Virus record (IMG/VR): IMGVR_UViG_3300019703_000001
Location: 1-64,000 of that record
Length of the DNA stretch: 64,000 nt
From: a virus
Lineage: Duplodnaviria; Caudoviricetes
Direction: 5' to 3' (one strand)
Shown: positions 1 to 41,890 of the stretch, one piece after another
How the letters are laid out: every line of letters starts with the position of its first letter
How positions within the stretch are numbered: the first letter of the stretch is position 1
The notes under the pieces: model-generated
Database searches by the model: none
The model's input: the letters and a program-made list of their open reading frames with translations, nothing else
What the model was told of the DNA's origin: nothing
Translations under genes and position numbers: made by a program

Positions 1-344
1 CCATTGTCTTCTTGAAAATTAAAGATTAAATTATCAATATAACCAAAAGACCCTACATCATAATATTCAGAACTTACCGGTGTAACTTTTTCAAACCAAT
101 CAAGATCAAAACGATTTTGTCTATGTTCAACGAAATCAATATGAAAATATTTTTGTCCACGTTTAAGTAAGGTTAATTTGCCGGGATTATTTATGTTGTC
201 AAACAATAGGAAAATATTTTCAACAGTATAGATTTCCATGTCTTCTTCACTTTTAAATAAAAAATCATTTTCAGATTCATATTTTTCCCGGCCATAATCT
301 GAAAATCGCACTTTATCCCCCGGTTTGATTCTTGTTTCTTTCAT
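1..344 (-). CDS. hypothetical protein, 3'-truncated by window edge (MKETRIKPGDKVRF...)
   Basis: Read manually; GGAGG SD upstream of ATG at 344; frame open to position 1. Confidence 0.7.
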   Translation of the reverse strand, partial: MKETRIKPGDKVRFSDYGREKYESENDFLFKSEEDMEIYTVENIFLLFDNINNPGKLTLLKRGQKYFHIDFVEHRQNRFDLDWFEKVTPVSSEYYDVGSFGYIDNLIFNFQEDN

Positions 345-490
345 ATTAAGCCTCCTTTGAGATATAATTTTATTTTAAAACCATTACACAGGGCTTCTGT
401 ATAGCCTTTAAGTACCGTGAAAATGATTTTTTGAGTCAATTTTTTATTTAAAAGCCCATACAGGCCCTTAAAAACAGCGTTTTTTAGTCT

Positions 491-520
491 AATATGACAT
501 AATTTCCCTTTTGTCCTATT
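491..520 (-). repeat. 12-6-12 dyad site A (dif-like)
   Basis: Minus strand AATAGGACAAAA-GGGAAA-TTATGTCATATT followed by AGACT; arms 10/12 inverted match. Confidence 0.85.
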
Positions 521-1649: not shown

Positions 1650-1815
1650 GCTTTTTCTCCTCTACTGATTTATACCCCACAGGAGGCTTTAATGTCCTGT
1701 CTATATTTGCCCTTATACAAAAAATCATTTGAATGTAAGGGCTATATTTCAAAAAACATTTAAAGCACTCTTCTGAGGTTACATTTTTATTTAGTTTATG
1801 ACAAAAATTTTTCAT
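1639..1815 (-). CDS. 58-aa hypothetical protein (below ORF-track cutoff)
   Basis: ATGA overlap with recombinase stop; MKNFCHKLNKNVTSEECFKC... Confidence 0.5.
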   Translation of the reverse strand: MKNFCHKLNKNVTSEECFKCFLKYSPYIQMIFCIRANIDRTLKPPVGYKSVEEKKHEE

Positions 1816-2711
1816 ATCTTAATATTTGCATTTTCAGGGGCAAGTTTCGTGTCCACATACCTCATTGTTGTTGATATATTTCTATGATGAAGAGATAAGC
1901 TGACCTCTTTAATTGGACGGCCCTCTACATTGATTTTATGCGTAGCGTACAAATGTCTAAGCATATGCGGGTGAACATGTTTGTCAATCGTTCGCTTAAA
2001 GAAGTCAACGATTTCAGCGTAAATATATTTTCTTGAATAATAGCTCCCTTTTTTGGAATAGAAAAGAGTGTCCCGGTCATCTCTATCCGGGAAAACTTCT
2101 TTTATTCTTTCATACAATTCTTTATCAAGATAGACAAAATCTTCAACTTTTCCCTTGCCTCTTGTCGTTATCAATATTTTATCCTTATTGTAATTATCAT
2201 TAATATCTGAGTTTTTAATCCCTATAAGAGATGAGACCCGTAAACCGGTTGCAACAAATGCCTCTATTATTAGCATTATTCGGGCGGTTCGATCAGTGTG
2301 ATGTTTTTTTTGATACCCTCTTTTAAAAGCTTTTTGAACGTCTTTTAATGTTATGGAGATCTTAAATTCTCTTGATGTGCGTCTTTGGATGTTATGAAAT
2401 TCCTTTAAAACTGCCACAGGATTTTGTTCTATCTCGCCTACAGATGCTAAAACTCTGAATAGTTTTGACAAAGAAGCTACTCGCCTATTGATGGTGTTGC
2501 CCTTAAAGCCTTGCGTTTCCATATGCTTAATATATCCGGCAAGGTCATCAGGGGTAACTTGCTCAGGAGGCTTATTGACGAATTTAAAAAATAAGTCATA
2601 ATCTGATTTATAGGCTGATTGTGTCTGTGGTGATAATAAATTCCAAGCGGTTTCTTTTTTATCAATTTCTAAGGGCTGATCTTTTTTAACAGCAATTTCG
2701 TTTTTTTTCAT
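1812..2711 (-). CDS. XerC/D-like tyrosine recombinase
   Basis: TGLRVS, RGKG, HPHMLRH, LHH...TTMRY catalytic set; SAM-like N-domain; 299 aa, no arm-binding domain. Confidence 0.93.
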   Translation of the reverse strand: MKKNEIAVKKDQPLEIDKKETAWNLLSPQTQSAYKSDYDLFFKFVNKPPEQVTPDDLAGYIKHMETQGFKGNTINRRVASLSKLFRVLASVGEIEQNPVAVLKEFHNIQRRTSREFKISITLKDVQKAFKRGYQKKHHTDRTARIMLIIEAFVATGLRVSSLIGIKNSDINDNYNKDKILITTRGKGKVEDFVYLDKELYERIKEVFPDRDDRDTLFYSKKGSYYSRKYIYAEIVDFFKRTIDKHVHPHMLRHLYATHKINVEGRPIKEVSLSLHHRNISTTMRYVDTKLAPENANIKI

Positions 2712-4473: not shown

Positions 4474-5752
4474 TTTTTTTAGATTCCTGTAAAAACTCTT
4501 TATCTTTTTCTATTATCTCAGGGTCCACTTCAAGCGCAATTTCATTAAAGCCTTTTAGATAGATTCCCTCAAGTGCTGTGGCCCGTGATAATGCAACATA
4601 GCCCATGTTTTGCACAAACACATCTGTCAAATCAGTATTGACATAATTAAATGTAGCCCCTTGGCTTTTATGAACAGTCAAGGCCCACGCCAGTTTTAAC
4701 GGAAATTGCTCAATCCATGCGATTATCTTTTCGTATCCCCCGGCATTATATTCAGTTAGTTTCCATTTATGTCTGACTACACTGATCGTTTCTCTGGTCT
4801 TTAATGTTTTAATTTCAACATATCCGCCTGAAACTTCATCATGCATTCCGCTTAAATCAGTAACTTCGGCCAATGTCCCATTAACAAGCCCGGTCCGGGG
4901 GTCATTGATAAGATGCATGACCTTCGCCCCTTCTTTTAATAGCAGTGTTTCAGGGGCTAAACATGCTTTTTTTAAGCCATTTATATGAAAAACCTGAGCT
5001 CTTTTGTCGTGTGTCATGTAACTAAAAGAAGGATCGCCTTCGAGTTGATTTAATTCATACAAATTCATTGCATCAACGTCAACGTTTTTACAATACAGAT
5101 TAACAGCATCGTCCGTATGTTTGAAGTTTTGAGACAACCCTTTTAACACTTCTATTTGTTCAGATGTAACCTGATTGCGCCTGATATTGTTTAAAATGTC
5201 AATTAAAACAGTATCATTTTGTCTGTATATTTTTTTTAAATAACAGACTTTAAAGTTAGCTGCGGCCCAACTTTTAGCATAAAAACAATAATCTATTTGA
5301 GGATTTTTAGACTTTTCAACCGGGGGCAATTGAAAAAAGTCTCCACACACAATAACCTGTAATCCCCCGAAAGGCTTGTCTCCTGTTTTTAAGAATCTAC
5401 AGACCTGATCAACAAGATCAAGTCTGCAATTATCCAGCATGGATAATTCATCTATTATTAGAACATTCATACCCGCAATTCTGCGAAAAGAGTATGGATT
5501 ATTTCTTAATGCATGCAAATCGTCTATAATAAGCTTCTCTTTTATCCCTATTCCGGCCCATGAGTGGATTGTTTTTCCGTCAATATGAGTAGCCGCAATG
5601 CCTGTACTTGCCGTCACTGCCACTTTTTTCCCTTTACCTTTTAATTTCTTGATGATCTTATTAAGGGTGTAGCTTTTACCCGTCCCGGCTTTACCGGTTA
5701 TAAATAGGTTATGACCGTCAAGGGCTAATTTAATGGCTTGTTTTTGGTCCAT
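4466..5752 (-). CDS. Pif1/RecD-like SF1B helicase
   Basis: GKAGTGKS, STGIAA, IDELSM, GDFFQLPPV, HKSQGAT, YVALSRA. Confidence 0.93.
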   Translation of the reverse strand: MDQKQAIKLALDGHNLFITGKAGTGKSYTLNKIIKKLKGKGKKVAVTASTGIAATHIDGKTIHSWAGIGIKEKLIIDDLHALRNNPYSFRRIAGMNVLIIDELSMLDNCRLDLVDQVCRFLKTGDKPFGGLQVIVCGDFFQLPPVEKSKNPQIDYCFYAKSWAAANFKVCYLKKIYRQNDTVLIDILNNIRRNQVTSEQIEVLKGLSQNFKHTDDAVNLYCKNVDVDAMNLYELNQLEGDPSFSYMTHDKRAQVFHINGLKKACLAPETLLLKEGAKVMHLINDPRTGLVNGTLAEVTDLSGMHDEVSGGYVEIKTLKTRETISVVRHKWKLTEYNAGGYEKIIAWIEQFPLKLAWALTVHKSQGATFNYVNTDLTDVFVQNMGYVALSRATALEGIYLKGFNEIALEVDPEIIEKDKEFLQESKKNE

Positions 5753-6210
5753 TATGACTCCTTGAAAATTTTTGTATAATTACACCCTTTTACTGGACAT
5801 GTAAAGACATTCTTGACTTTAGTTTTTACAATTAAAACTTTATGTTTAGGGCAAAGCTCAAAGCAACCCGGCCCATTATCTTTAAACTGCAAGGTCAACA
5901 GTTGATTAAATATTTCAAAAAAGACAGAAATTATTTTTTCTTGATCTTTTTTTGGTAGTTTGATTGGCGTTTTGGAAAACCGACAATCAAACTCCTCTAA
6001 ATTTGAACTTCGCAAATTATGTGTTATATTCTCTTTTAAGTCATCATATATAGTTTTTTTAATCTCTTCTAAAGATCCATTGCAAATTAAAAAATCCTCT
6101 AAATCTATATAGCTGCCTAATATTTTGTTATTAAATTCAAACAGAATATAAAATCTCTGAAATCTTCCTGTTTTTGCTGCTAATAATACTTTTTCTTCTG
6201 TTATTTCCAT
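5752..6210 (-). CDS. hypothetical protein with C-terminal Zn ribbon
   Basis: CPKH...CPVKGC; translational coupling. Confidence 0.7.
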   Translation of the reverse strand: MEITEEKVLLAAKTGRFQRFYILFEFNNKILGSYIDLEDFLICNGSLEEIKKTIYDDLKENITHNLRSSNLEEFDCRFSKTPIKLPKKDQEKIISVFFEIFNQLLTLQFKDNGPGCFELCPKHKVLIVKTKVKNVFTCPVKGCNYTKIFKES

Positions 6211-8826: not shown

Positions 8827-8862
8827 AATAAGACATAAAGCAAGCGTCTTGTCTTATGTCAA
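8827..8862 (-). repeat. variant dyad site H (8-bp spacer) overlapping a TTGACA box
   Basis: CATAAGACAAGA-CGCTTGCT-TTATGTCTTATT-AGA; TTGACA at 8857-8862. Confidence 0.6.
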
Positions 8863-11444: not shown

Positions 11445-11474
11445 AAAACGATATAACATCCATTTGTCCTATTA
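11445..11474 (-). repeat. dyad site B
   Basis: TAATAGGACAAA-TGGATG-TTATATCGTTTT-AGATGG. Confidence 0.8.
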
Positions 11475-11478
11475 GAGG

Positions 11479-11766
11479 TTATTTTTTAAAACAATACCCC
11501 TCTAAAAAATGTTTACAGGGCATATTACTACAACTTTCACAATTCTTTAAATATTGAAACTGTATATGAGGCGACACTTGAATTTTAAAAAGTTTCATCA
11601 TAAAATCTGAAATCTCATATATTGGACTAAGATCAATGTTTTTCAATTCAGGATTTAAACTTAAATTAGAGTTATAAATTTCACCAACAAAAAAACCTGA
11701 ACTTCTTAAATAACACTTATATTTAAAATTATCTACTTTTTCAAATCTTACAGAGTCTGTTTCCAT
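11479..11766 (-). CDS. hypothetical protein bracketed by sites C and B
   Basis: GGAGG SD; C-terminal CESC..C..C. Confidence 0.7.
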   Translation of the reverse strand: METDSVRFEKVDNFKYKCYLRSSGFFVGEIYNSNLSLNPELKNIDLSPIYEISDFMMKLFKIQVSPHIQFQYLKNCESCSNMPCKHFLEGYCFKK

Positions 11767-11803
11767 ATCGCACCTCCCCCTTTTATTATAAATTTTTACG
11801 TCT

Positions 11804-11833
11804 AATGAGTCATAAACTGCATTTTGTCTTTTT
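11804..11833 (-). repeat. dyad site C
   Basis: AAAAAGACAAAA-TGCAGT-TTATGACTCATT-AGACGTAAAA. Confidence 0.85.
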
Positions 11834-11844
11834 ACAATTCTATT

Positions 11845-12165
11845 CTAAGTCATAAATTTGTCATAAATTTCATAAATGTCACGTTTACAATATTCGTAAA
11901 CCTTATTTAAATCAGGGAATCCGCTTTCAGCAACTATGTTACCTACAAGGGAATCATGATCAATGTGCCTGTACATATAATCAATTAGCATCTCAGCAGC
12001 TTCTTCAAAACTGTTTGCTTCAAAAGATATACCGGCAAAGTTCCCCGCGAAAAATTCACTCGTAACACAATGTGCCCCGTAAAGCGGACAAATATGTATG
12101 TGTTCTTCTGACTTCGGAAGTTTTTTAATTAAATCTAACATTTCTTTTGCTGTTGGTCTTTCCAT
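11845..12165 (-). CDS. hypothetical protein bracketed by sites D and C
   Basis: AGGAG SD; single ORF between two sites. Confidence 0.75.
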   Translation of the reverse strand: MERPTAKEMLDLIKKLPKSEEHIHICPLYGAHCVTSEFFAGNFAGISFEANSFEEAAEMLIDYMYRHIDHDSLVGNIVAESGFPDLNKVYEYCKRDIYEIYDKFMT

Positions 12166-12200
12166 AATATTTTCTCCTTTTAATTTATTATTTTACGTCT

Positions 12201-12230
12201 AATAAGTCATAACATCCATTTTGTCCTATT
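12201..12230 (-). repeat. dyad site D
   Basis: AATAGGACAAAA-TGGATG-TTATGACTTATT-AGACGTAAAA. Confidence 0.88.
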
Positions 12231-12265
12231 GGTTTTTGCCGTTTATTTAAATTAAAATTATTTTT

Positions 12266-13015
12266 TTACATTAACGGTTTAATTGTTTCAAATAAAATTT
12301 TTGCTATGTCAGGGACAATGGAATTTCCCAGTCCCTTAATTCGGTCCACCCTTCGGGGTATCCCATGAGCCATTCTACCCATATCGGGTTCAGTTGGCCA
12401 CCGGTGTAATGGTTTGAACGGAACATCACAACAGCTACGAGATTTTTCTTTTTTAGCATTTTGACAAAACTCTTGCTCCCGTGTGGACCGCACCCCTTGT
12501 AATCCGATGCTAGCGGGGTAGGCCATAATCCAGATTCGTTCTCTTTTGTGCGGCGCACCCACGTCCCTTGCGCGTATATCTTGCCATTCTGCATTATACC
12601 CGATTTCGACAAGCCCTCCCAGGATTTCGCGTAATCCCCGACGAACAAGCTCTCCGACATTTTCCAATATTGCAAATTGCGGTTGTAAATCTCTAATAAG
12701 TCTCCAATATTCAAACCAAAGACCAGACCTTTTTCCATTAATTCCTTCTCCTTTTCCCATTATTGAAATATCCTGACAAGGGAATCCACCTGTCAAAATC
12801 CAATTACTTCCATACTCTTTCAGGAGTTTTTTTGAGTTAATTTTAGAAACATCTCCAAGTTGAATTGATCCTGGAAACCTTTTTCTATATAACTCCTGAC
12901 AATATCTATTAGTGTCAGAACAAAAATGATTTTTGAATTTCATATTAGCCCTGTAGGCTCCTAATGCAAAACCGCCTATTCCGTGAAATAAATCTATATA
13001 ATTATAATTTTCCAA
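12266..13015 (-). CDS. C5 DNA cytosine methyltransferase, alpha polypeptide (motifs I-VIII, X)
   Basis: DLFHGIGG, GGFPCQD, ENV, RERIW, GLGNSIVP; motif IX absent. Confidence 0.9.
   Translation of the reverse strand: MENYNYIDLFHGIGGFALGAYRANMKFKNHFCSDTNRYCQELYRKRFPGSIQLGDVSKINSKKLLKEYGSNWILTGGFPCQDISIMGKGEGINGKRSGLWFEYWRLIRDLQPQFAILENVGELVRRGLREILGGLVEIGYNAEWQDIRARDVGAPHKRERIWIMAYPASIGLQGVRSTREQEFCQNAKKEKSRSCCDVPFKPLHRWPTEPDMGRMAHGIPRRVDRIKGLGNSIVPDIAKILFETIKPLM
12304..12738 (-). CDS. C5 methyltransferase beta polypeptide, overprinted in alternative frame
   Basis: WPTP and LNPIWVEWLMGYPEGWT (motif IX-like); true start may be an internal Met. Confidence 0.75.
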   Translation of the reverse strand: MEKGLVFGLNIGDLLEIYNRNLQYWKMSESLFVGDYAKSWEGLSKSGIMQNGKIYAQGTWVRRTKENESGLWPTPLASDYKGCGPHGSKSFVKMLKKKNLVAVVMFRSNHYTGGQLNPIWVEWLMGYPEGWTELRDWEIPLSLT

Positions 13016-13050
13016 TATACCTCTCTATAAATTTTTATTTTTTTACCCCT

Positions 13051-13081
13051 AATAGGTCATAACATCCATTTTTGTACTATT
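13051..13081 (-). repeat. dyad site E
   Basis: AATAGTACAAAAA-TGGATG-TTATGACCTATT-AGGGGTAAAA; overlaps upstream TAG stop. Confidence 0.82.
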
Positions 13082-13496
13082 CCATACTCAATACTTTTTG
13101 AACTTCTATTTTATTAATTTGTTCGGCCATTCTTTCACACTCAGTAATGCAATAATCTAAAGTTCTTACAACCCCACCGGTAGGGAATTTGATTTCTAAC
13201 TTCAGTACTTCCGGTTTACAATTCAATAGATCTTTCCCATCTCCTGAATGAGCACAATCATACCCAAACCACCACAAATCGGACTTAACAGGATATTTTG
13301 ATTCATTTCCTCCACCTGAGTATGTAAGTCCACCATGAACTTCTATCAAAAAATCTATTTCTCTGTAGTCTTTTTCAAATAGGGGGTTGTCTTTTGGAAC
13401 TCCAACATATCCGCATCTGTGGCCCAAAGTTGTCGATAGAATAACAACACACCTTAATCCATTGTGAATCCAATCTTTTTCAACTTTATAATCCAT
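13077..13496 (-). CDS. conserved phage protein
   Basis: GHRCGYV, VHGGLTY, WWFGYDCAH motifs common in phage hypotheticals. Confidence 0.8.
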   Translation of the reverse strand: MDYKVEKDWIHNGLRCVVILSTTLGHRCGYVGVPKDNPLFEKDYREIDFLIEVHGGLTYSGGGNESKYPVKSDLWWFGYDCAHSGDGKDLLNCKPEVLKLEIKFPTGGVVRTLDYCITECERMAEQINKIEVQKVLSME

Positions 13497-13537
13497 ATTA
13501 TACCTCTCCTTTAAATTTTTATTTTAAAAACTTTTTT

Positions 13538-13756
13538 TTAGGGAAAAAGTCTTTTTAGTTCTTCATTCCTAACTTTTTCGTTTGAGCTATTTAATGGGCT
13601 GTTATCATTCCATTCTCCAATATCCGCTTCTCTGCAGGATATTTGAAAAACATGAGTATGGTTCGGGAACCTTGTTTCATCAATTAGGTTTTCAGCCTGT
13701 TCTATTGATTCAACATCCGAATCACATATTATTACTTCTAATTTATAAACTTTCAT
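13538..13756 (-). CDS. hypothetical protein
   Basis: ORF with AGAGG SD. Confidence 0.65.
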   Translation of the reverse strand: MKVYKLEVIICDSDVESIEQAENLIDETRFPNHTHVFQISCREADIGEWNDNSPLNSSNEKVRNEELKRLFP

Positions 13757-13813
13757 ATATAACCTCTATCTTTTAAACTTTTATTTTAATTTTTTTCTGA
13801 AAAAAATAAAATA

Positions 13814-14005
13814 TTATTCAATATACTTTAATTTATTTTTTAATTTATTATCTTCGTCAAACATGTCGGGAGATACTGTGTGTAAAATCCGCCATAGAGC
13901 AATTCCGTAATCACTACTGTCGTCAAAATATAAAGCATTATTAGCTAAAGTTTCAACTTGTTTTAATAAGTTCTGTAAATCATTTTGTTCTTTTTTTTCA
14001 GTCAT
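13814..14005 (-). CDS. hypothetical protein
   Basis: ORF with AGAGGTG SD. Confidence 0.65.
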   Translation of the reverse strand: MTEKKEQNDLQNLLKQVETLANNALYFDDSSDYGIALWRILHTVSPDMFDEDNKLKNKLKYIE

Positions 14006-14030
14006 GTTTCACCTCTCTTTTAAGTTTAAA

Positions 14031-14234
14031 TTACTCCCAACTATCAAAAAGCATTTGCAGCTTTTCTTTGTCTTTATAAATATGGGATCCTTTCGGATAA
14101 AGCCCCACTCTGAATTCAACGTATTTGTCGTTAACATATAAAAACTCAAATCCTTGCTTATTGCGGGGCGCATACAAAACGCAATCACCGAAGTCGCTTA
14201 CTATGAAACAATATCTGTTTAGTATTTCAATCAT
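14031..14234 (-). CDS. hypothetical protein
   Basis: ORF in operon. Confidence 0.6.
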   Translation of the reverse strand: MIEILNRYCFIVSDFGDCVLYAPRNKQGFEFLYVNDKYVEFRVGLYPKGSHIYKDKEKLQMLFDSWE

Positions 14235-14237
14235 AGT

Positions 14238-14498
14238 TCAACTCTCAATATTTTGCCATGTTCGGATTCTTTCGACGATTTTTGTCAATGCTTCGCTTGC
14301 TTCGGATTCTTTGCTGTAGACCAACTTGCTAGTGAAGCTTTTCTCGTTTTTTAAGGATAATACTATATTGTAACTTTCACGGCTGTCCTGATTTTTTTGG
14401 TATAAAACTATATGGTTTATTTCATCGATGTTTATATAAATTTCTTTAGTCCCTTGTACAGCAGACTGGAAATCCTCTGAAATATCTAAAAGTCTCAT
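14238..14498 (-). CDS. hypothetical protein
   Basis: GGAGG SD; first gene after promoter at 14533-14561. Confidence 0.7.
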   Translation of the reverse strand: MRLLDISEDFQSAVQGTKEIYINIDEINHIVLYQKNQDSRESYNIVLSLKNEKSFTSKLVYSKESEASEALTKIVERIRTWQNIES

Positions 14499-14532
14499 AA
14501 TTTAAGCCTCCTTTGTTATTTTATTTAAAGAC

Positions 14533-14561
14533 AAAATAATACCTTGTCATATCTTTGTCAA
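14533..14561 (-). promoter_or_regulatory. sigma70-type promoter
   Basis: TTGACA-aagatatgacaaggtat(17)-TATTTT. Confidence 0.7.
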
Positions 14562-14594
14562 GTTAAAAGTAAAAAAAATAATTATTTTACGTCT

Positions 14595-14624
14595 AAAACG
14601 GCATAAGTAATCTTTTGTCTTATT
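14595..14624 (-). repeat. dyad site F
   Basis: AATAAGACAAAA-GATTAC-TTATGCCGTTTT-AGACGTAAAA. Confidence 0.85.
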
Positions 14625-14630
14625 AGTATT

Positions 14631-14804
14631 TCATTCATCCGGTTGATACAACCACGGTTTTTCAGTAATGTCACAAAAAGAATTTTTTGGGCAAACTATA
14701 CACCAGTCCCTAATATACACAGGTTCATCTTCACAGCCACAATCAACTGGATTTTCATCCACGTGCAATGTACACTTAAAGCAAATACAATCTTTATAAT
14801 CCAT
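14631..14804 (-). CDS. 57-aa Cys-rich protein (missing from ORF track), paralog of the C-terminus of 15307-15855
   Basis: MDYKDCICFKC...DCGC...DWCIVCPKNSFCDITEKPWLY. Confidence 0.75.
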   Translation of the reverse strand: MDYKDCICFKCTLHVDENPVDCGCEDEPVYIRDWCIVCPKNSFCDITEKPWLYQPDE

Positions 14805-14816
14805 AAACAACCATCC

Positions 14817-15062
14817 TTAATTAATTTTTATACATTCCAAAATATGTCTTAATAATTTTTCATGTTTTATTTCATCATGTTCAATATCCCTTATTTCTAA
14901 TGTAAAAATGTTAATGACTATTTCACCATAACTCATACCGCCCCTTTCATTTAATCTTTTTAACGATTGAGAATGTATTAGTTGAGCATGATATTCATTT
15001 AATAACCTAGTAGGAAATTCTTTTATTCCTTCTGGTAATGGCCCTAATATTTTCATTTTCAA
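14817..15062 (-). CDS. hypothetical protein
   Basis: ORF; HSQSLKRLNERGG motif. Confidence 0.65.
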   Translation of the reverse strand: MKMKILGPLPEGIKEFPTRLLNEYHAQLIHSQSLKRLNERGGMSYGEIVINIFTLEIRDIEHDEIKHEKLLRHILECIKIN

Positions 15063-15262
15063 CCTTCCCCTTTTTTAAGTTTATCTTTATTTTTTTTGAG
15101 TTCTTGAGCGTCCACAAAAATTTCATACCCTTCATTATATACCCATTTGTGAAATTCTTTTGACATTCGACATACAAAAACTCCATTGACAAATTTTGAA
15201 CCGCCCTTTTTTGCGATTATCATTTCAGCTTTCTTCAAAATAAATTTTTCAATTATTTCCAT
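15059..15262 (-). CDS. hypothetical protein
   Basis: ORF downstream of site G with AGGAG SD. Confidence 0.6.
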   Translation of the reverse strand: MEIIEKFILKKAEMIIAKKGGSKFVNGVFVCRMSKEFHKWVYNEGYEIFVDAQELKKNKDKLKKGEG

Positions 15263-15294
15263 TTCTATGGCTCCTTTTTTATTATTTTACGTCT

Positions 15295-15324
15295 AATAGG
15301 TCATAATCAAGCTTTTGTCTTTTT
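15295..15324 (-). repeat. dyad site G
   Basis: AAAAAGACAAAA-GCTTGA-TTATGACCTATT-AGACGTAAAA; spacer contains the TGA stop of the upstream gene. Confidence 0.85.
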
Positions 15325-15855
15325 TGGAATATATCCCCACGGTTGCGCTGTAACCTTACAGTAACGCCTCTTAGGGCATTCCATACACCAATCTTTTATG
15401 TACATAGGATCATTTTTGCAGCCGCACTCAAAAGATGCCTCTTCTGTAAGGTTTTTACATTTAAAACAACAACAATCATAATAGGGTTGATACTCCCATG
15501 TGAATATTATTTCTGTAATATCTGTCTTTTGTTTACGTATTTCAATAATTTTATAGTTGTTTTTTTCCAAAATTTTTATTATATATTGAAAAAATAGATT
15601 TGCTACAGGGCCAATGGGGAAGTTCCCTCTATAGTCTTTAGGTATACCCATGCGAGGCTCTATATTTTGGGAGTTTTCTTCAATCTGAGATAAATCAAAA
15701 AGAGAAATTCTTCCCAGCATTTCTCCATAATAAAAAGTGCCATCTGTTCTTTCTTGAATATAAGCTTTGATTTTCTCATCATATTTTTCAAACTTTTTAT
15801 CATATTTTTTTCTGGCTTCTATTGTTTTATCAAATGCTTCATTTGCTTTAATCAT
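15307..15855 (-). CDS. hypothetical protein with C-terminal Cys-rich domain
   Basis: DCCCFKC...ECGC...DWCMECPKRRYC...PWGY. Confidence 0.75.
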   Translation of the reverse strand: MIKANEAFDKTIEARKKYDKKFEKYDEKIKAYIQERTDGTFYYGEMLGRISLFDLSQIEENSQNIEPRMGIPKDYRGNFPIGPVANLFFQYIIKILEKNNYKIIEIRKQKTDITEIIFTWEYQPYYDCCCFKCKNLTEEASFECGCKNDPMYIKDWCMECPKRRYCKVTAQPWGYIPKKTKA

Positions 15856-16811: not shown

Positions 16812-17223
16812 TGAAGAAAAGAAAAAACTACATTCTGAATGGCTGAAATGCAAAAATGCTGAATCTAGGGCCAAGGCAAAAAGGCAGGAAGTTGAAGATC
16901 AGCTAAGTGCTTTATATCCTGATTTTGATACAAGTTCAAAGACCTTTAAAGATGAGGAGCTGGGTTTTTCTACAAATATCAAAAAAAATCCTAATTGGAA
17001 GCTTAATCAAGAAGGATATAAGTCAATAAGGGATTCGATCCCAGCAGATTTACGGCCCGAAAAGATTGTATTCGAGTTGGACAAAAAAGGATATGAGTAT
17101 TTAAAGAAGAATTATCCTGATATTTACAAAATTGTATCCGAACATGTAGAATTCAAATACAATCGGCCTACAATAGCAGTTGAAAAATTAAAAAAAACAG
17201 GAGGTACTAATGGGAATTCTTGA
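16804..17223 (+). CDS. phage protein of Sak4/DUF669 recombination operon
   Basis: Coiled-coil N-terminus; operon position. Confidence 0.7.
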   Translation: MDNEEKKKLHSEWLKCKNAESRAKAKRQEVEDQLSALYPDFDTSSKTFKDEELGFSTNIKKNPNWKLNQEGYKSIRDSIPADLRPEKIVFELDKKGYEYLKKNYPDIYKIVSEHVEFKYNRPTIAVEKLKKTGGTNGNS

Positions 17224-18016
17224 CAATGTCGAAACAGGGGTGAAACAAAGCGCAAGAAAGCTGATCATTTATGGCCCTGCTAAAATAGGAAAATCTACAT
17301 TTTGCGCAGCGGCTCCAAAGCCACTATTGGTGCGGCTTGAAGATCGTGTCGATGACATCGCTTGTGCTAAAACACCATTATTAACAAAATATCAAGAGGT
17401 GGCTGATTTAATAAAGGAGCTTGCCGAAGGTGCGCATGACTATAAAACTCTTATAATCGACCCGATCGGAGATCTTGAGAGGCTAATACATTCTCATTTA
17501 TGCCAAAAATATGGATGGGAGTCTATAAATAGTGACAAGCATAAAGCCACGGCATTTCACAACGGATATAAGGTTGAAGCTCCGAAGGGCTGGAGAACAT
17601 TCTGTTCTAATTTAGATTATTTAAGAAAAAAACGCAATATGAATGTTGTTTTAATTGCTCACGAAGAAAAAGTAACTGAAAGACCTACTGACAAGGACCC
17701 GTATGACAAATTAGTTCCTGCAATTGATATTCATTCGGTTAAGGTAATTGAAAGGTGGGCGGATATAATAGGGCATTATGGACCGGATTATCTGGTTGAC
17801 AAAGACGCAAAAACTAAAAGGGGCCGTGCAATAGGGTTAGATTCACGGAGTTTAGAGCTTGACGGCAGGAACCCGGCAATTTTATCAGGGAACAGTTACC
17901 ACTTTGGCAACATTACCCCTGTGAATCTTGGTAACTTAAAAGACATTATGAAATTTTTACTGGAAGACAATCTAACTCCCGGTAGAGATGAAACAAAAAC
18001 AAAAGGTAAAAAATAA
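17210..18016 (+). CDS. Sak4-like AAA ATPase (single-strand annealing/recombination)
   Basis: IYGPAKIGKST, LIIDP, LIAHE. Confidence 0.85.
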   Translation: MGILDNVETGVKQSARKLIIYGPAKIGKSTFCAAAPKPLLVRLEDRVDDIACAKTPLLTKYQEVADLIKELAEGAHDYKTLIIDPIGDLERLIHSHLCQKYGWESINSDKHKATAFHNGYKVEAPKGWRTFCSNLDYLRKKRNMNVVLIAHEEKVTERPTDKDPYDKLVPAIDIHSVKVIERWADIIGHYGPDYLVDKDAKTKRGRAIGLDSRSLELDGRNPAILSGNSYHFGNITPVNLGNLKDIMKFLLEDNLTPGRDETKTKGKK

Positions 18017-18027
18017 GGAGGCCAAAT

Positions 18028-18645
18028 ATGGCAGTAATAAATCATGTTATAAGAGACGACATACCAAATGAAAAACCAAAACCAGTTCCAGAGGGTGACT
18101 ATCTTGCAATGATTGTAAAATCAGACGCAGGTAGGAACAAAAGTGGTACGGGTGACTTTATCAGTTTGAATTTTAAAATCATTGACGGACAATTTAAGGG
18201 GCGGCAAATTTTTGATTACATAAATCACAAATTTGATGCTTATGGGACAGATGAAGGCAAAACAAAAGCGCAACATATTGGCCAAAGACATTTTAACGAA
18301 ATATGTAGGGCTCTGGGATATACAACCCAAGTCGCAGACACTATGTTGCTCCATGACAAACCATTAAAAATAACTGTTGGCGTAAAACACGATCCCGGCT
18401 ATGACCCAAAAAATGAAGTTAAAAAAGCTGTGCCTATATCAGGAGCGGCCCCGGTTGTCCCTCAACAAGGGGCAAATATGGCAGCAGGGAATCAGCCTCA
18501 AGCACCTAGTGCCCCCCCTCAGCAACAGGGGGAGGCTTTGCCTCAGTTTCTTCAACAAGGGGCCGGGACCGAAGTCCCACAGCAAACAGATCAACCTGCT
18601 CCGAAAGCATGGGAGCAAGGTCAAGGAGGTATACAAGACTTGTAA
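18028..18645 (+). CDS. DUF669-like single-stranded DNA-binding protein
   Basis: PVPEGDYLAMIVKS...ISLNFKIIDGQFKGRQIFD; Q/P/A-rich tail. Confidence 0.8.
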   Translation: MAVINHVIRDDIPNEKPKPVPEGDYLAMIVKSDAGRNKSGTGDFISLNFKIIDGQFKGRQIFDYINHKFDAYGTDEGKTKAQHIGQRHFNEICRALGYTTQVADTMLLHDKPLKITVGVKHDPGYDPKNEVKKAVPISGAAPVVPQQGANMAAGNQPQAPSAPPQQQGEALPQFLQQGAGTEVPQQTDQPAPKAWEQGQGGIQDL

Positions 18646-18652
18646 ATTAAAC

Positions 18653-18684
18653 AAAAAAGACCCTTTTTAAAGGGTCTTTTTTTT
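18653..18684. terminator. bidirectional intrinsic terminator
   Basis: aaaaaagacccttt-tt-aaagggtctttttttt between convergent genes. Confidence 0.9.
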
Positions 18685-18688
18685 GGCA

Positions 18689-21451
18689 TTATCTGCTAAT
18701 TGCTAAACTTCCGGAGTTTCCTACGGCTACATGTAACCCTGCGCCAAATGCAAGGTTTGTCATTAAATTTGTACCCATGTTGGCAGTTTGAAGCTCCCAA
18801 TTAATGCCGTCAATACTCGTGCCTATTAGGCCATTCCCGGACACTGCAACAAAAAGCCCATTTGCATAAACAATGTCTGCTATATTATTTAAACCAAAAC
18901 TTGTACCCTGTGTCTGCCATGTCACACCGTCGGTACTAATCGCAAGTGCGCCAATATTTCCTGTTAAAACATAAATTCCATTTCCATAGGTTACGCCTCT
19001 TAGCACAATACTAGCCCCAAATCCACTTGTCTGTTGTGTCCAGTTAACCCCGTCGGAACTTGTGGCGACTTTTCCATTTGCCCCAACTGTTATAAATTGG
19101 TTTTTACCATAAATAATATTAGATATATTATCAGTGCCAAAACTTGAGGTTCTTTGTGTCCATGTCACACCATCTGAACTTGTGGCTAATTTTCCAGAAT
19201 TTCCCACAGCTACAAATTTTCCGGATCCATATGCCGCATTTTTAATTATGTCAGTTCCGAAACTGCTTGTCTGCTGCGTCCAGTTAATCCCGTCCAAGCT
19301 TGTGGCAAGCTTCCCGTCTTCTCCGCTTGCAATGCAGATATTGTTTGCGCATACTAGGCCCCTTATATCTGTAGCCCCGAAACTTGAGGTTTGTTGTGTC
19401 CATGTAATACCATCAGGGCTTGTAAAAAGTTTACCGGCATTTCCCCCGATTATGTACTTATTGTGCGCAAAAGTCGCTGCGTTTATGTTATCAGCCCCGA
19501 AACCGGAGTCTTGAGAAATCCAGTCTGTACCGGGTAAGGGCTGGTAATATCCGTTTGTGGCTATTTTACCAATCTGATTACCAATCAAAAATAAGCCGTC
19601 TCCATATGCTATTGTGTTTAATGAATCAGTCCCCAAATTTGAACTTTGTTGAAACCAATTTATCCCATCGGTGCTTCTCGCTATTTTCCCGTTTACTCCA
19701 ACAGCAACAAAAACCCCGTTACCATAATATACTTTTTCAATGTTATCAGTTCCAAAACTTGAGGTCCGGGGAGTCCATGTTATACCATCCGGACTTGTTT
19801 CTAATCCTCCTGTGTCACCTACGATGACATATAAGTCCAGCTCGGGGCTATACGCTACCCCTTGTGGTGCTATTGATATAGTCCTTTGTGTCCATGTTAT
19901 CCCATCGGAGCTTGTTATTAAACCAGCTCCAACAACAATAAATAAGTTATTCCCGAATGTCGCATCTCTAAAAATTCCAGAGAGAGCAGATGTTTGAGCA
20001 GTCCAATTAATCCCATCCGGACTTGTTGCAAGTTCTCCGCTTGATCCTGCAACAAGGTACAATTCATTTCCGTATGCGCACCCCCTATTAGCCCCGGAAG
20101 TCGGGTTTGTTTGTTGTGTCCATGTAATGCTATCGGGACTTGTTGCTATTGTCCCGGACGATCCACAGGCAATGTGCTTACCGTTTCCATAGGTGCACCC
20201 CAAAATAGAATCCCCACCCGCAAAACTTGAGGTTTGTTGTGTCCATGTAATACCATCAGGGCTTGTAAAAAGTTTACCAAGTGCCCCAACAGCGACAAAA
20301 ACCCTATTTCCATAATTAATATCGTAAATAATTGTTCCGAAACTTTCGTCTTTAATAGTCCAATTTATACCATCAGCATTATATTTTACATTTCTGAACT
20401 TCATATCTGTCAAATCGGCTTGAATTAAATTCAATAATTCATTTATTTGGCTTGTTTCATACTGTCGGGTTTGGTTTTCATCATAAATTTTATTTTGTAC
20501 TAAAATTGTGTCTGATTCACTTGTCCATTCTGTTTTTCGGTCCACGTTATAGATTAAGCTGTCTGTAATAAACGTTGTTGATGCGCCTACTGAAATCTCA
20601 GCAAGTTTAAACCATTCGGTAGTGCCGGTATACGTGTATTTATACCCCTTTGTTAAAATAGATAATCCGAATATAACCTCAAGAGCATCTTTTTCAGAAT
20701 CAGAGGTGGGGGCTTTAATTGAAAAAGTGCTTGCTGCGCCGGTCCCATCACCGGTAAAAACGATCACATTTCCGCCGCCTACACTTGCGGCTGTCCTTGA
20801 AAGTGCGCTGTTTATATTTGTCAATATTTCGGCCTTTGTTGTTGCGCTTGGGACTGCTCCCCGACAATCTATCTCAATAAAACTCCCGTCTTCTTTATCT
20901 GAAACATTTATTAAATACTTTGTACTGAGGTCTATTGTAGATGCAATTGCAACAGTTCCGGTCAAAACGCCCGCTGTGGCTGCTGTAGTATCTGTAGTGT
21001 CTGTTTGTTTCCGAATATTCAAGAAATATTTAACATCTCGTTTTATTGGTGTGTTGGATATAGTCACCTTGAGACCATTGTCTGTGGCTACTTGTGACAC
21101 GTCGTCTTTGTCTTCTGCTGTTTGTATCTGAGCTTCTATTATATCAACCCGTGCGCTTCCGGTTGCAGCGTCAATTGTGATTGTTGTATCTAATGTATTT
21201 ATTATAGGGGTAATGTCTCCGGATTCCTGTATCCTTTGTTCTCCTGTTCCTGCGGTCACCGTGACTGTCATTCCTGAATTCTCATAAACTCTTAACCCGG
21301 AGGTTATGAGAGCCTTTCCCTGATCAAACATTTGTATTTTATCATTTACGCCTATGTCCCGGACAGATATATCACCGATTCGTTTGAAGACTTCTATAGA
21401 GTCCCCAAGTTGTCCTTTTTGGCCGTTTACTGTTCTTAAATCTCTTGTCAT
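18689..21451 (-). CDS. tail fibre/receptor-binding protein with 14 beta-propeller blades
   Basis: Repeats GNGxFVAVGxxGKLATSxDGIxWT; N-terminal GLRV...TVTVTAG attachment-like domain. Confidence 0.8.
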   Translation of the reverse strand: MTRDLRTVNGQKGQLGDSIEVFKRIGDISVRDIGVNDKIQMFDQGKALITSGLRVYENSGMTVTVTAGTGEQRIQESGDITPIINTLDTTITIDAATGSARVDIIEAQIQTAEDKDDVSQVATDNGLKVTISNTPIKRDVKYFLNIRKQTDTTDTTAATAGVLTGTVAIASTIDLSTKYLINVSDKEDGSFIEIDCRGAVPSATTKAEILTNINSALSRTAASVGGGNVIVFTGDGTGAASTFSIKAPTSDSEKDALEVIFGLSILTKGYKYTYTGTTEWFKLAEISVGASTTFITDSLIYNVDRKTEWTSESDTILVQNKIYDENQTRQYETSQINELLNLIQADLTDMKFRNVKYNADGINWTIKDESFGTIIYDINYGNRVFVAVGALGKLFTSPDGITWTQQTSSFAGGDSILGCTYGNGKHIACGSSGTIATSPDSITWTQQTNPTSGANRGCAYGNELYLVAGSSGELATSPDGINWTAQTSALSGIFRDATFGNNLFIVVGAGLITSSDGITWTQRTISIAPQGVAYSPELDLYVIVGDTGGLETSPDGITWTPRTSSFGTDNIEKVYYGNGVFVAVGVNGKIARSTDGINWFQQSSNLGTDSLNTIAYGDGLFLIGNQIGKIATNGYYQPLPGTDWISQDSGFGADNINAATFAHNKYIIGGNAGKLFTSPDGITWTQQTSSFGATDIRGLVCANNICIASGEDGKLATSLDGINWTQQTSSFGTDIIKNAAYGSGKFVAVGNSGKLATSSDGVTWTQRTSSFGTDNISNIIYGKNQFITVGANGKVATSSDGVNWTQQTSGFGASIVLRGVTYGNGIYVLTGNIGALAISTDGVTWQTQGTSFGLNNIADIVYANGLFVAVSGNGLIGTSIDGINWELQTANMGTNLMTNLAFGAGLHVAVGNSGSLAISR

Positions 21452-36828: not shown

Positions 36829-37994
36829 TAGTTTATCAAGTCCGTAATATTTTTTTTGTCTGTCTTTGTCCAGCTTTTCGCAAGTACCGTTTTAGGGTAT
36901 GCCTTGTTTTCAAGATTATTTGGTTCGGGGTTATCCTCAAAAATAATATATGAAGGCTTATACCCGTACCTGATTGATATTGTTGTGTCTAAGTTGGGCT
37001 TATTGTCTGAGATCCATTTAATATTTCGGTCCTGTAAGATATAGTCAACCCCTATGTTGTATACTGTCCCATCTGATCCCAAAATTACATCATTTAATTC
37101 AAAAATTTCAATTTCAAATAACCGGTCCAAATCCCCTCTATGTGTTAAAGATTCGTTTCTCCAGAGAGTGGACCCGGTTAAAATTATAATATCCCCTATC
37201 GTGACATCCCAAAAGGGGTAAAGAGACATTTTTACTTGACCGGATTGAAGAGCATGTGTCCAGTCCTCTGAGTCGTTTTTATTGGCAATATCCCCCGCTA
37301 TTATTTGTGTCAAATCTGCGTAATAATATTCAGCGTACATTTTATCAGGTTCTATTGTTTCGCTTGTCTGTATTGTACGTCCGTCAAATGTATAATTAGT
37401 GATTTCCTGTTCGGTGTCTATATTCCAAATTTTTACTACTCGGGTAATATCAGCATAAGCGTTTAGAGGGTTACTGCTTTGATAACCTGCGTCAAAAACA
37501 TTTTGATTTGTGTACATCAGGCCGTTGTCTGCGTCAACTGTCAATTTATCTGATTCAACATATGTCCAACCATCAAAATAATATGTAACTCGTTTTTTAA
37601 ATATATCGCTCACTTCTTCTGTCAGGATTATTTCAGTATCAGTAAACGAGTCAACTTCAATGTCACGGATTCCACACTGGCTCTCAGCCCCTACGACCTG
37701 AACTTTTTCAACTCCAAGGATCGGAGTTCTGAAAGGATAAATCTTATCCCCGCAAGAGGGGCTATTTTCATCAGTTACCAAAAAACGCCGTTGTGGTCGA
37801 TAGACATAGCCGTCTCCTTTGCATATTTTACAAAAATAATCAACAGATCCCGAATTGTCCGCCGCACAAGGACAAATCATAGCTTGTTTTATTTTTGACA
37901 GAACGCCGTGGTTTGTAATCAGCTTAATAAAAGATTCAGGATTCCCAAAAACTGTAACCGCCGCCTGTTGTCCTATGTTAGCATTCTGGCCCAT
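36828..37994 (-). CDS. neck/head-closure protein (SPO1/Herelleviridae-like)
   Basis: ICPC...CKICKGDG N-terminal motif; IGDIIIL. Confidence 0.75.
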   Translation of the reverse strand: MGQNANIGQQAAVTVFGNPESFIKLITNHGVLSKIKQAMICPCAADNSGSVDYFCKICKGDGYVYRPQRRFLVTDENSPSCGDKIYPFRTPILGVEKVQVVGAESQCGIRDIEVDSFTDTEIILTEEVSDIFKKRVTYYFDGWTYVESDKLTVDADNGLMYTNQNVFDAGYQSSNPLNAYADITRVVKIWNIDTEQEITNYTFDGRTIQTSETIEPDKMYAEYYYADLTQIIAGDIANKNDSEDWTHALQSGQVKMSLYPFWDVTIGDIIILTGSTLWRNESLTHRGDLDRLFEIEIFELNDVILGSDGTVYNIGVDYILQDRNIKWISDNKPNLDTTISIRYGYKPSYIIFEDNPEPNNLENKAYPKTVLAKSWTKTDKKNITDLIN

Positions 37995-40357: not shown

Positions 40358-41890
40358 TTATACAATATTATAAATATTCTGTCTGGCTTGTTCAATTCCA
40401 ATGTTTCGTATCTCAATTAATACATTCGGCCTATAGTAAATCGGAGCGACATAAAGATTGATTAAACCCTGTTCAAATCGTCCGATTTTTGCCAAGTTTA
40501 CATTGTGTATAGGAAGAAGCTGAGACATTGCCATACAGCGACTTTCTCCGGCTGTTGTCTGATCCACAATGAACATCCTTGCAGTGCCGGGTATATAGTC
40601 GTTTTTATCCTGATACGTTACAGCAGTTAAAGAGTTTGAACTGTTTGCCGGAACCGTATACAGATATTTAAAGTCCCCTGAGCCTGAAACTTTTTCTGAA
40701 TAAATTTCAAAACAAGTAGGAAGCTTAGACCCTGCGTCAAGTTGATTTGGTGTGATGGTTAGGGTTATCGCCCCACCTGCTGCCACAGCCGCTGAGGATT
40801 CCACCGATACACTTGCAACAGAGCGACCATACTCGTTCATTGCCGCAACCCTGTAGTTGTATTTCACACCGGAGGGTCTTGTGGTTGACGCACTAAAATT
40901 AGATCCGGTAACGCCGGTATTATTAGCAAGGGTCACAGTAGGAATGCTCGGAGCCTTTTCGCTTGTAGCTCCCTCTTTACTTGTTCCAGTGTTTCTGTCG
41001 TAGTATACCGGTACACCTCGGGCCTCATAACTCAGGCCAAGAAGCTTGTCAATTCTCGGAGTCATCGAACCAAAACTTGTCATGATTCTGCCGATGTTAC
41101 CACCGATTGTCTGACCGGCTGCTCCCATAGTGGTGTTTTTACGTACCAATTGGCCTTCTGCGGACTGTTCGATGATGTTATGCAAGTTTGTCACAGCTGC
41201 GGGACTCATATAAACTCTACTGTTGTCAGGCTGTCCATTTCCTTCCATTATGAGCTGTGCCGATGTATTGAAAACGCTCATGGTCAAGTTTCCGCCTCTC
41301 AGGTCTCTTACCTGATCGGACGATTGACCGGCAATAGTGGCCTCAAGGCCGTCGAACGCTTTAGGGACCCATGCAGAATTTGATCTATACATAGCCATGT
41401 CCACGTTACGCATAAGCCTCAGCATTGCGGCTTTTTGAGCAAATGCCTTTCGTTCGATAATAGATGCAACATTCATTTCTACATCTCCGACGGTCCAACC
41501 CTCTGACAGATACTTCATAATTACAATTTTCTTCTCAAAATCGGGGTCTCTGAATTCAGGATTCTCCATTTGATTAACAAACCCTCCGTCACTTATGCCG
41601 GAACCGGTCTCTTGATCGAACTCATGCACAGAACTACTTGCGTTTGTTTTGTTGACATCCTGCCAAAAAGTAAAGTCATTTGCATTTAGAGTCAGACTGG
41701 CAAGGGTATTCTCAAGACTTTGCTTGGCAATAACACCGCCTGCATCTTGATATAATGCGTTTACGGACTCAGGGGCCAAAAGAGCTTTTGAAAGTTCCTG
41801 AACTTGAGATAAAGACATTGAGTCTATACCATTTTGACTGTCAGACAGACCGCCTGTTCCTTGTAAAAGAGCCAAAATTTCTTCATTCAT
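40358..41890 (-). CDS. major capsid protein (SPO1/Herelleviridae-like)
   Basis: QSLENTL..LT...DFTFW..V.K..ASSSVHEF; 510 aa; after scaffold. Confidence 0.9.
   Translation of the reverse strand: MNEEILALLQGTGGLSDSQNGIDSMSLSQVQELSKALLAPESVNALYQDAGGVIAKQSLENTLASLTLNANDFTFWQDVNKTNASSSVHEFDQETGSGISDGGFVNQMENPEFRDPDFEKKIVIMKYLSEGWTVGDVEMNVASIIERKAFAQKAAMLRLMRNVDMAMYRSNSAWVPKAFDGLEATIAGQSSDQVRDLRGGNLTMSVFNTSAQLIMEGNGQPDNSRVYMSPAAVTNLHNIIEQSAEGQLVRKNTTMGAAGQTIGGNIGRIMTSFGSMTPRIDKLLGLSYEARGVPVYYDRNTGTSKEGATSEKAPSIPTVTLANNTGVTGSNFSASTTRPSGVKYNYRVAAMNEYGRSVASVSVESSAAVAAGGAITLTITPNQLDAGSKLPTCFEIYSEKVSGSGDFKYLYTVPANSSNSLTAVTYQDKNDYIPGTARMFIVDQTTAGESRCMAMSQLLPIHNVNLAKIGRFEQGLINLYVAPIYYRPNVLIEIRNIGIEQARQNIYNIV

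Follow-up and report, generated by a model that had tools for sequence, protein, structure and literature searches.

Arrays of dif-like sites in a group of phages track a clade of Xer-like recombinases and may serve core-matched gene exchange

An array of seven dif-like sites, each with two imperfectly inverted arms around a variable 6-bp core, was found between small accessory genes of the phage represented by virus record IMGVR_UViG_3300019703_000001 (85,078 bp), of which bases 1–64,000 form the window analyzed here. The new element is the link between such site arrays and one specific clade of Xer-like tyrosine recombinases. On the evidence of sequence, the sites are very probably the target of the phage's own enzyme of this clade, and their main role would, on balance, be a core-matched exchange of genes.

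A profile scan of the whole genome gave exactly seven sites (31–50 bits), all on the minus strand and in one orientation, which confirmed the positions and cores listed in an earlier note on this DNA. The further variant at 8827 given in that note is the next-best match; its right arm is good, but its left arm has decayed. With the consensus at up to three mismatches, five loci were recovered in the genome and none in 100 shuffles. Five of the seven sites are intact, the left arms of the other two (11445 and 13051) being damaged by insertion or deletion. The sites are listed below, together with the occurrence of their cores in G001 (a relative approximately 95% identical to the window phage, with 13% difference at fourfold sites), in the otherwise unrelated phage G002 and in L022.

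491–520, minus strand: site A, intact, core GGGAAA; G001 has the same core with a different upstream gene
8827–8856, minus strand: decayed variant with an intact right arm, a degenerate left arm and an overlap with a TTGACA box (11.6 bits)
11445–11474, minus strand: site B, core TGGATG, left arm one A short, predicted inactive
11804–11833, minus strand: site C, intact, core TGCAGT; core also in G001 and G002, with unrelated flanks
12201–12230, minus strand: site D, intact, core TGGATG; core also in G001, both flanks unrelated
13051–13080, minus strand: site E, core TGGATG, predicted to be inactive, the left arm having a G>T change and an additional A
14595–14624, minus strand: site F, intact, core GATTAC; core also in G001, both flanks unrelated
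15295–15324, minus strand: site G, intact, core GCTTGA; core also in G001 and L022, with unrelated flanks

Given the damage to B and E, site D is the only intact TGGATG site and the three copies are not equivalent; the left-arm G>T of site E is also present in the G002 copy. Excision or reordering of cassettes among B, D and E through their shared core, as had been proposed, is for this reason unlikely, and no two intact sites of any one genome examined share a core (0/66 pairs). The 12-6-12 dyad described previously holds as regards two arms and a 6-bp core, but the invariant part is GACAAAA-N6-TTATG and the dyad reaches only loosely to ~15 bp per arm, and does so in the window's lineage only. 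The left arm meets the core with AAAA in 36 of 36 sites. The placement of the sites by stop codons was upheld: they lie at, or within ~20 bp of, the upstream stop codon (~40 bp for D), which is often inside the left arm. A start codon with a ribosome-binding site follows ~40 bp after five of the sites, with a longer non-coding stretch after A and F. A candidate site at genome position 72638 was rejected, as it lies in a coding region and is without the invariant motif. Three near-tandem TCATAAAT words at window 11840–11880, at the end of an open reading frame (ORF) of 106 amino acids, look like partial right arms. Site A is followed by ~145 bp of conserved non-coding sequence in which long inverted segments occur (window 335–490; also L026 2052–2190), and G001 has two copies of this element (2332–2476 and 5741–5896) behind different cores, each before a different gene.

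The candidate enzyme is encoded in the same region.

1812–2711, minus strand: Xer-like tyrosine recombinase of 299 amino acids (Pfam), with PDB matches to XerA, XerD and XerH

This protein consists of a core-binding and a catalytic domain without an arm-binding domain; the R-K-H-R-H-Y residues are all intact, and the structure model of the protein is closest to XerA and XerH. It belongs to a phage group whose members are 35–47% identical, the gene usually lying directly after that of a helicase, and no provirus was seen among the matches to this clade. In a tree with a midpoint root only, the clade stands, with good support, as a group of its own, distinct from the cellular rows that are named XerC or related to these; its identity to Xer is ~25–30%, and IntI4 gives a weak match confined to the C-terminal part (E 7e-5). 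The co-occurrence of motif and enzyme supports the earlier view that the sites are Xer-like, and ties them to the clade of this protein, which is probably their cognate recombinase.

In 17 clade loci (514 kb around clade enzymes) 27 exact motifs were counted against 0.45 expected, and a scan of spacer lengths gave 35 matches at 6 bp and at most two at any other spacing. Distant clade members also have GACAAAA-N6-TTATG, and motif and enzyme were found together in four unrelated backgrounds, namely a smaller phage, a sigma-factor/SNF2-helicase element, a Thy1/YopX phage and a 1.8-kb contig; a single site is present in a complete 41-kb phage whose enzyme is more distant. No motif was found in ~454 kb around recombinases 22–36% identical. 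Sites occur in 7/7 largely complete family genomes with the clade enzyme (the window phage, G005, G006, G008, G047, G062 and G074) and in 0/2 without it (G007 and G073, which share the capsid and replication genes), giving p = 1/36 when calculated by hand. For this comparison G074, G073 and G007 were found via other genes; G064 and G047 are identical to each other, as are G059, G060 and G006, and these are not independent. G074 has the clade enzyme and six sites with six different cores. Of the ORFs that tblastn could detect, the recombinase is the only one shared by the genomes with sites and lacking in G007.

Outside the clade the pattern is rare, the lineage pattern matching 2 of 185,579 species genomes in a single copy each. 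A 16-bp pattern matched 46 viral records, with the clade enzyme present only in the one having two matches, and matches in ANME-1, Peptoniphilus and single-match viral contigs were set aside as looking like chance. No convincing alternative repeated dyad came out of a de novo search of G007, L008 and G009. Over the 21 kb of L008, which encodes a clade enzyme, no dyad was seen; four small genes there (17709–18936) are preceded by a different repeat, a conserved leader of 18 bp that ends in the ribosome-binding site. Several genomes have only one or two sites, and antisense and intragenic copies are found among the relatives. One of the two sites of G062 lies antisense inside the recombinase gene (65518–65535), and the other overlaps a signal-peptide-like coding start. 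Several relatives have one opposite-orientation site downstream of a primase-polymerase gene (G006 67028, G047 60898, G008 25737 and G010 22264), possibly an ancestral position.

The cores differ within genomes and are kept between them. Within genomes of the window's lineage, core identity is 0.27 (chance 0.29) and that of the arms and leader 0.6–0.8; core positions 1 and 2 are biased, with identities of 0.62 and 0.52 compared with 0.18–0.27 at positions 3–6. G001 has all five intact window cores in the same order, with both flanks non-homologous at four of them. In seven matched pairs of sites between strains, one of 42 core positions differs, compared with 12 of 42 variable arm positions (p = 0.0008). 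The same island pattern is seen between L135 and L120, and one core is kept between two phages only ~70% identical. As core order is conserved between relatives, exchange between genomes is suggested rather than shuffling within one.

The genes and blocks considered between the window sites are as follows.

11479–11766, minus strand: ORF of 95 amino acids, the sole ORF between C and B, absent from the G001 contig
11845–12165, minus strand: the ORF of 106 amino acids, the sole ORF between D and C, absent from the G001 contig
12266–13015, minus strand: C5 cytosine DNA methyltransferase cassette between E and D (PF00145)
14625–15294, minus strand: block S, three to four ORFs, homology stopping at both bounding sites

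This agrees with the earlier description, in which E and D bracket only the methyltransferase and the D–C and C–B intervals one ORF each. Block S is bounded by sites in both strains and occupies a different slot in each (GCTTGA/GATTAC in the window, TGGATG/TGCAGT in G001). Block S and the element after site A both break any fixed rule by which a core would stay with its downstream gene, and such a rule was discarded. The 57-amino-acid last gene of block S (14631–14804) has 47% identity to part of a 182-amino-acid gene before site G (15307–15855).

The idea that the methyltransferase unit is mobile was borne out by G002, where the unit (96.5% identity over 890 bp, to L005) is bracketed by a TGGATG site with similar damage and by a TGCAGT site. 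The G002 record, which is 83% complete, yielded no tyrosine recombinase. A ribosome-binding region, duplicated directly over 25 bp, flanks the insert in G002 (L005 3100–3135 and 4030–4056). G002 also has, at 40381–40507 (L005 ~1830–1950), a copy of a hairpin repeat that occurs four times in the head region of the window phage (44630, 50026, 53290 and 54670), three of these being 81–86% identical to it over ~80 bp, which suggests a common host and a second mobile unit. A 103-amino-acid gene that follows a site in L026 (5324–5610) is without one in G002 (37010–37296), the ORF alone having been exchanged.

Between L173 and L176 the same upstream gene is joined to TAACTG in one and TAGGGA in the other, cores which share their first two bases only; L173 has an extra 950-bp unit before TAGGGA, with the junction within ~11 shared bases. 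When junctions were tallied by hand, 5/5 at sites were broken compared with 7/20 elsewhere (p = 0.015), and a gene-content break between the window phage and G001 comes after the decayed 8827 variant. The earlier note had called for a search for gene-content breakpoints at the sites of related phages; such breaks were found, but so were many others away from sites.

Tyrosine recombinases exchange strands across a center of 6–8 bp. The fuller model, which we consider evenly poised between right and wrong, is a natural, phage-encoded, single-enzyme system of cassette exchange with ordered heterospecific sites, whose cores would be the addresses for slot-by-slot swaps in co-infection and which would grow by insertion of cassettes at cores sharing two bases. 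In the main reading, which we consider somewhat more likely than not, one recombinase would bind both arms and cut at the edges of the 6-bp core. Originally one or two sites may have served circularization or dimer resolution, a position-independent role suggested by the genomes with one or two sites that are sometimes antisense or intragenic, and in some lineages the sites would then have multiplied between accessory genes. Because strand exchange goes to completion only between matching cores, the genes lying between unlike cores of one genome would not be deleted; such cores would keep the array stable, duplicate cores being disabled (B and E). In co-infecting relatives, a crossover at one shared core with resolution at a second would swap the intervening genes and preserve the core order. 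New sites and genes would enter by a rarer one-sided exchange between cores whose first two bases alone agree, as in integrative mobile elements exploiting Xer (IMEX), or alternatively by microhomology joins at arms and ribosome-binding sites. In the pdif sites of Acinetobacter plasmids, recombination between plasmids takes place only if the central regions match, and cassette exchange via cointegration and resolution has been proposed, not observed (10.1101/2024.04.09.588662).

Several points tell against a cognate enzyme and core-matched exchange. Binding of the enzyme and recombination at the sites are predictions from sequence comparison. There are only two negative-control genomes (G007 and G073), two clade fragments of ~20 kb (L008 and G009) have the enzyme and no site, and three family fragments (G075, G084 and G095, of the TAGGGA lineage) have sites with no recombinase in the fragment. 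The site pairs compared between strains were matched by core, so that order is the only independent check, and left-arm alleles often follow the core rather than the upstream gene. Strict core matching does not account for block S, both of whose flanking cores have changed. A large number of the breakpoints that separate relatives fall at ribosome-binding sites lying apart from any dyad, the junction tally gives p = 0.07 when restricted to accessory genes, and the phage's own Sak4 could use matched sites of 30–45 bp.

This last point belongs to a rival explanation in which the sites are bound only for circularization or multimer resolution, or are bound uncut, and gene turnover is due to Sak4-type recombination, through homology or microhomology, acting on the site-plus-leader repeats in the manner of the promoter early stem-loops (PeSLs) of T4. 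The phage encodes Sak4 and a single-stranded DNA-binding protein (SSB), ribosome-binding sites form many of the breakpoints, the G002 insert is flanked by the 25-bp duplicate, several genomes have just one or two sites (some intragenic), and the PeSLs offer a precedent (PMC2839356). It does not readily explain, however, why cores are more conserved between strains than arm positions that tolerate change, why a core is kept at 70% genome identity, or how junctions arise in lineages whose arms give only ~11 bp, and it is regarded as improbable. Much the same standing is given to a mainly integron-like mode, in which cassettes would be excised and inserted between unlike cores by exchange of one strand pair, with the first two core bases matching and replication resolving the junction. 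The bias at core positions 1 and 2, the joining of one upstream gene to TAACTG or TAGGGA in L173 and L176, the movement of TGGATG together with the methyltransferase and the change of slot by block S would all fit such a mode, and some integron-like insertion between unlike cores is possible. Free shuffling would, however, scramble an order of cores that is kept between strains differing in most of their genes, and block S keeps no core at either end.

The remaining explanations differ over what would recognize the sites. That they are operators of a transcription regulator other than the recombinase would suit their dyad symmetry and free spacer, their position just upstream of ribosome-binding sites and the recurrence of GACAA words in the real promoters of the phage. 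This is nevertheless very unlikely: strong sigma70-type promoters do not coincide with intact sites, a search for an HTH_3 repressor found none, the only ORF that, by tblastn, the genomes with sites share and G007 lacks is the recombinase, the motif accompanies the enzyme even in unrelated elements, and a neutral spacer would not stay conserved between strains. Use by host XerCD, as for pdif, is given equally little probability. The TTATG inner arm and 6-bp core do match dif, and in G002, of whose genome 83% is available, two sites occur and no tyrosine recombinase was found, but ATAA-core-TTAT is described as a XerCD requirement and AAAA stands in its place beside the core, the lineage pattern is almost absent from species genomes (the two single copies noted above) and the motif follows the phage enzyme. 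Phage-specific promoters (RGACA-17-TATTAG, offered as an alternative in the earlier note and here rejected) or RNA hairpins are scarcely conceivable. In the window's lineage the sites are co-oriented with genes; the proposed -10 box lacks the final T, however, reading TTTTAG in several copies, it would overlap the ribosome-binding site in L042, and the antisense and intragenic copies in relatives fit neither promoter nor hairpin. As regards hairpins, there is no covariation, an A–A mismatch is invariant, the folds are weak and inconsistent, and there is no Rfam match.

Among known systems, the pdif (xrs)/dif modules of Acinetobacter plasmids are similar in having several dif-like sites per replicon, 6-bp centers that differ within the molecule and variable genes between them, and their exchange model of cointegration at one matching pair and resolution at another is like that proposed here (10.1101/2024.04.09.588662). 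Unlike pdif, the present sites are phage-borne, with a candidate single recombinase encoded by the element in place of host XerC/XerD and FtsK; all seven are in direct orientation within the array, whereas flanking pdif sites are mostly opposite; their left arm is without ATAA, so that the ATAA-core-TTAT inner motif is absent; and core order is conserved between genomes. XerA/dif, XerH/difH and XerS/difSL also combine a two-domain enzyme of ~300 amino acids and R-K-H-R-H-Y residues with imperfect inverted arms and a 6-bp center, but such single-enzyme systems have one chromosomal site for dimer resolution, whereas the phage clade has one to seven sites with different cores (PMC5357621).

The PeSL cassettes of T4-type phages likewise have small accessory genes separated by repeats, which mark where genes have been inserted, deleted or replaced (PMC2839356, PMC4122927). 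PeSLs, however, are units of promoter and terminator, and the sites described here have neither, their dyad instead being strict and their core variable, with a recombinase that co-occurs. Integrons, phage-borne ones included, resemble the array in their promoterless genes between sites and in stop codons often placed in a site arm (PMC9892861). They are unlike it in that here there is no folded site of the attC type and no attI beside the enzyme, the spacing is fixed at 6 bp, order is conserved and covariation is absent. IMEX have no recombinase of their own and an attP that mimics host dif; the phage encodes its enzyme, and there is no matching family of chromosomal sites. In heterospecific lox and FRT sites the arms are the same and the spacers differ, like spacers recombine and unlike ones do not, and a double crossover swaps a cassette. 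Those sites are engineered and used with Cre or Flp, whereas the phage system would be a natural version with a Xer-like enzyme. On the features tested, therefore, the system is like pdif modules and engineered heterospecific lox exchange in the way it works, yet it is not a member of the pdif, integron, IMEX or PeSL groups.

The phage is a myophage by its sheath, baseplate and major capsid genes, and its capsid protein has <30% identity to those of cultured phages. Both ends of the record are bridged in another contig, with nine bases between them, which indicates that the genome is essentially complete. The samples containing the phage are freshwater sediments. The site array lies within a leftward early region in which small accessory genes are followed by a Cas4-type exonuclease, two helicases and the tyrosine recombinase, and the annealing functions form a divergent unit.

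17210–18645, plus strand: Sak4-like annealing protein and SSB (phrog_124, phrog_6015)

A ParA-type ATPase was also searched for in the phage and, like HTH_3, was not found, and tRNA and Rfam scans gave no matches. After the TTGACA boxes of the early region (window 1470, 8857, 14556 and 16501) come repeats of the words GACAA or GATAA, which may be a motif for an activator or a repressor.

The precise swapping of unrelated phage genes at gene boundaries is a long-standing question, usually credited to illegitimate or short-homology recombination. A literature search, incomplete in its coverage, gave no description of a phage system of the present kind. The co-occurrence of a defined enzyme and an 18-bp minimal site across many phages makes the existence of dedicated, labeled crossover points testable. 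If the proposal is true, the clade would offer genome engineering a compact recombinase and over 30 naturally occurring core variants as orthogonal sites, and phage mosaicism would have a dedicated mechanism.

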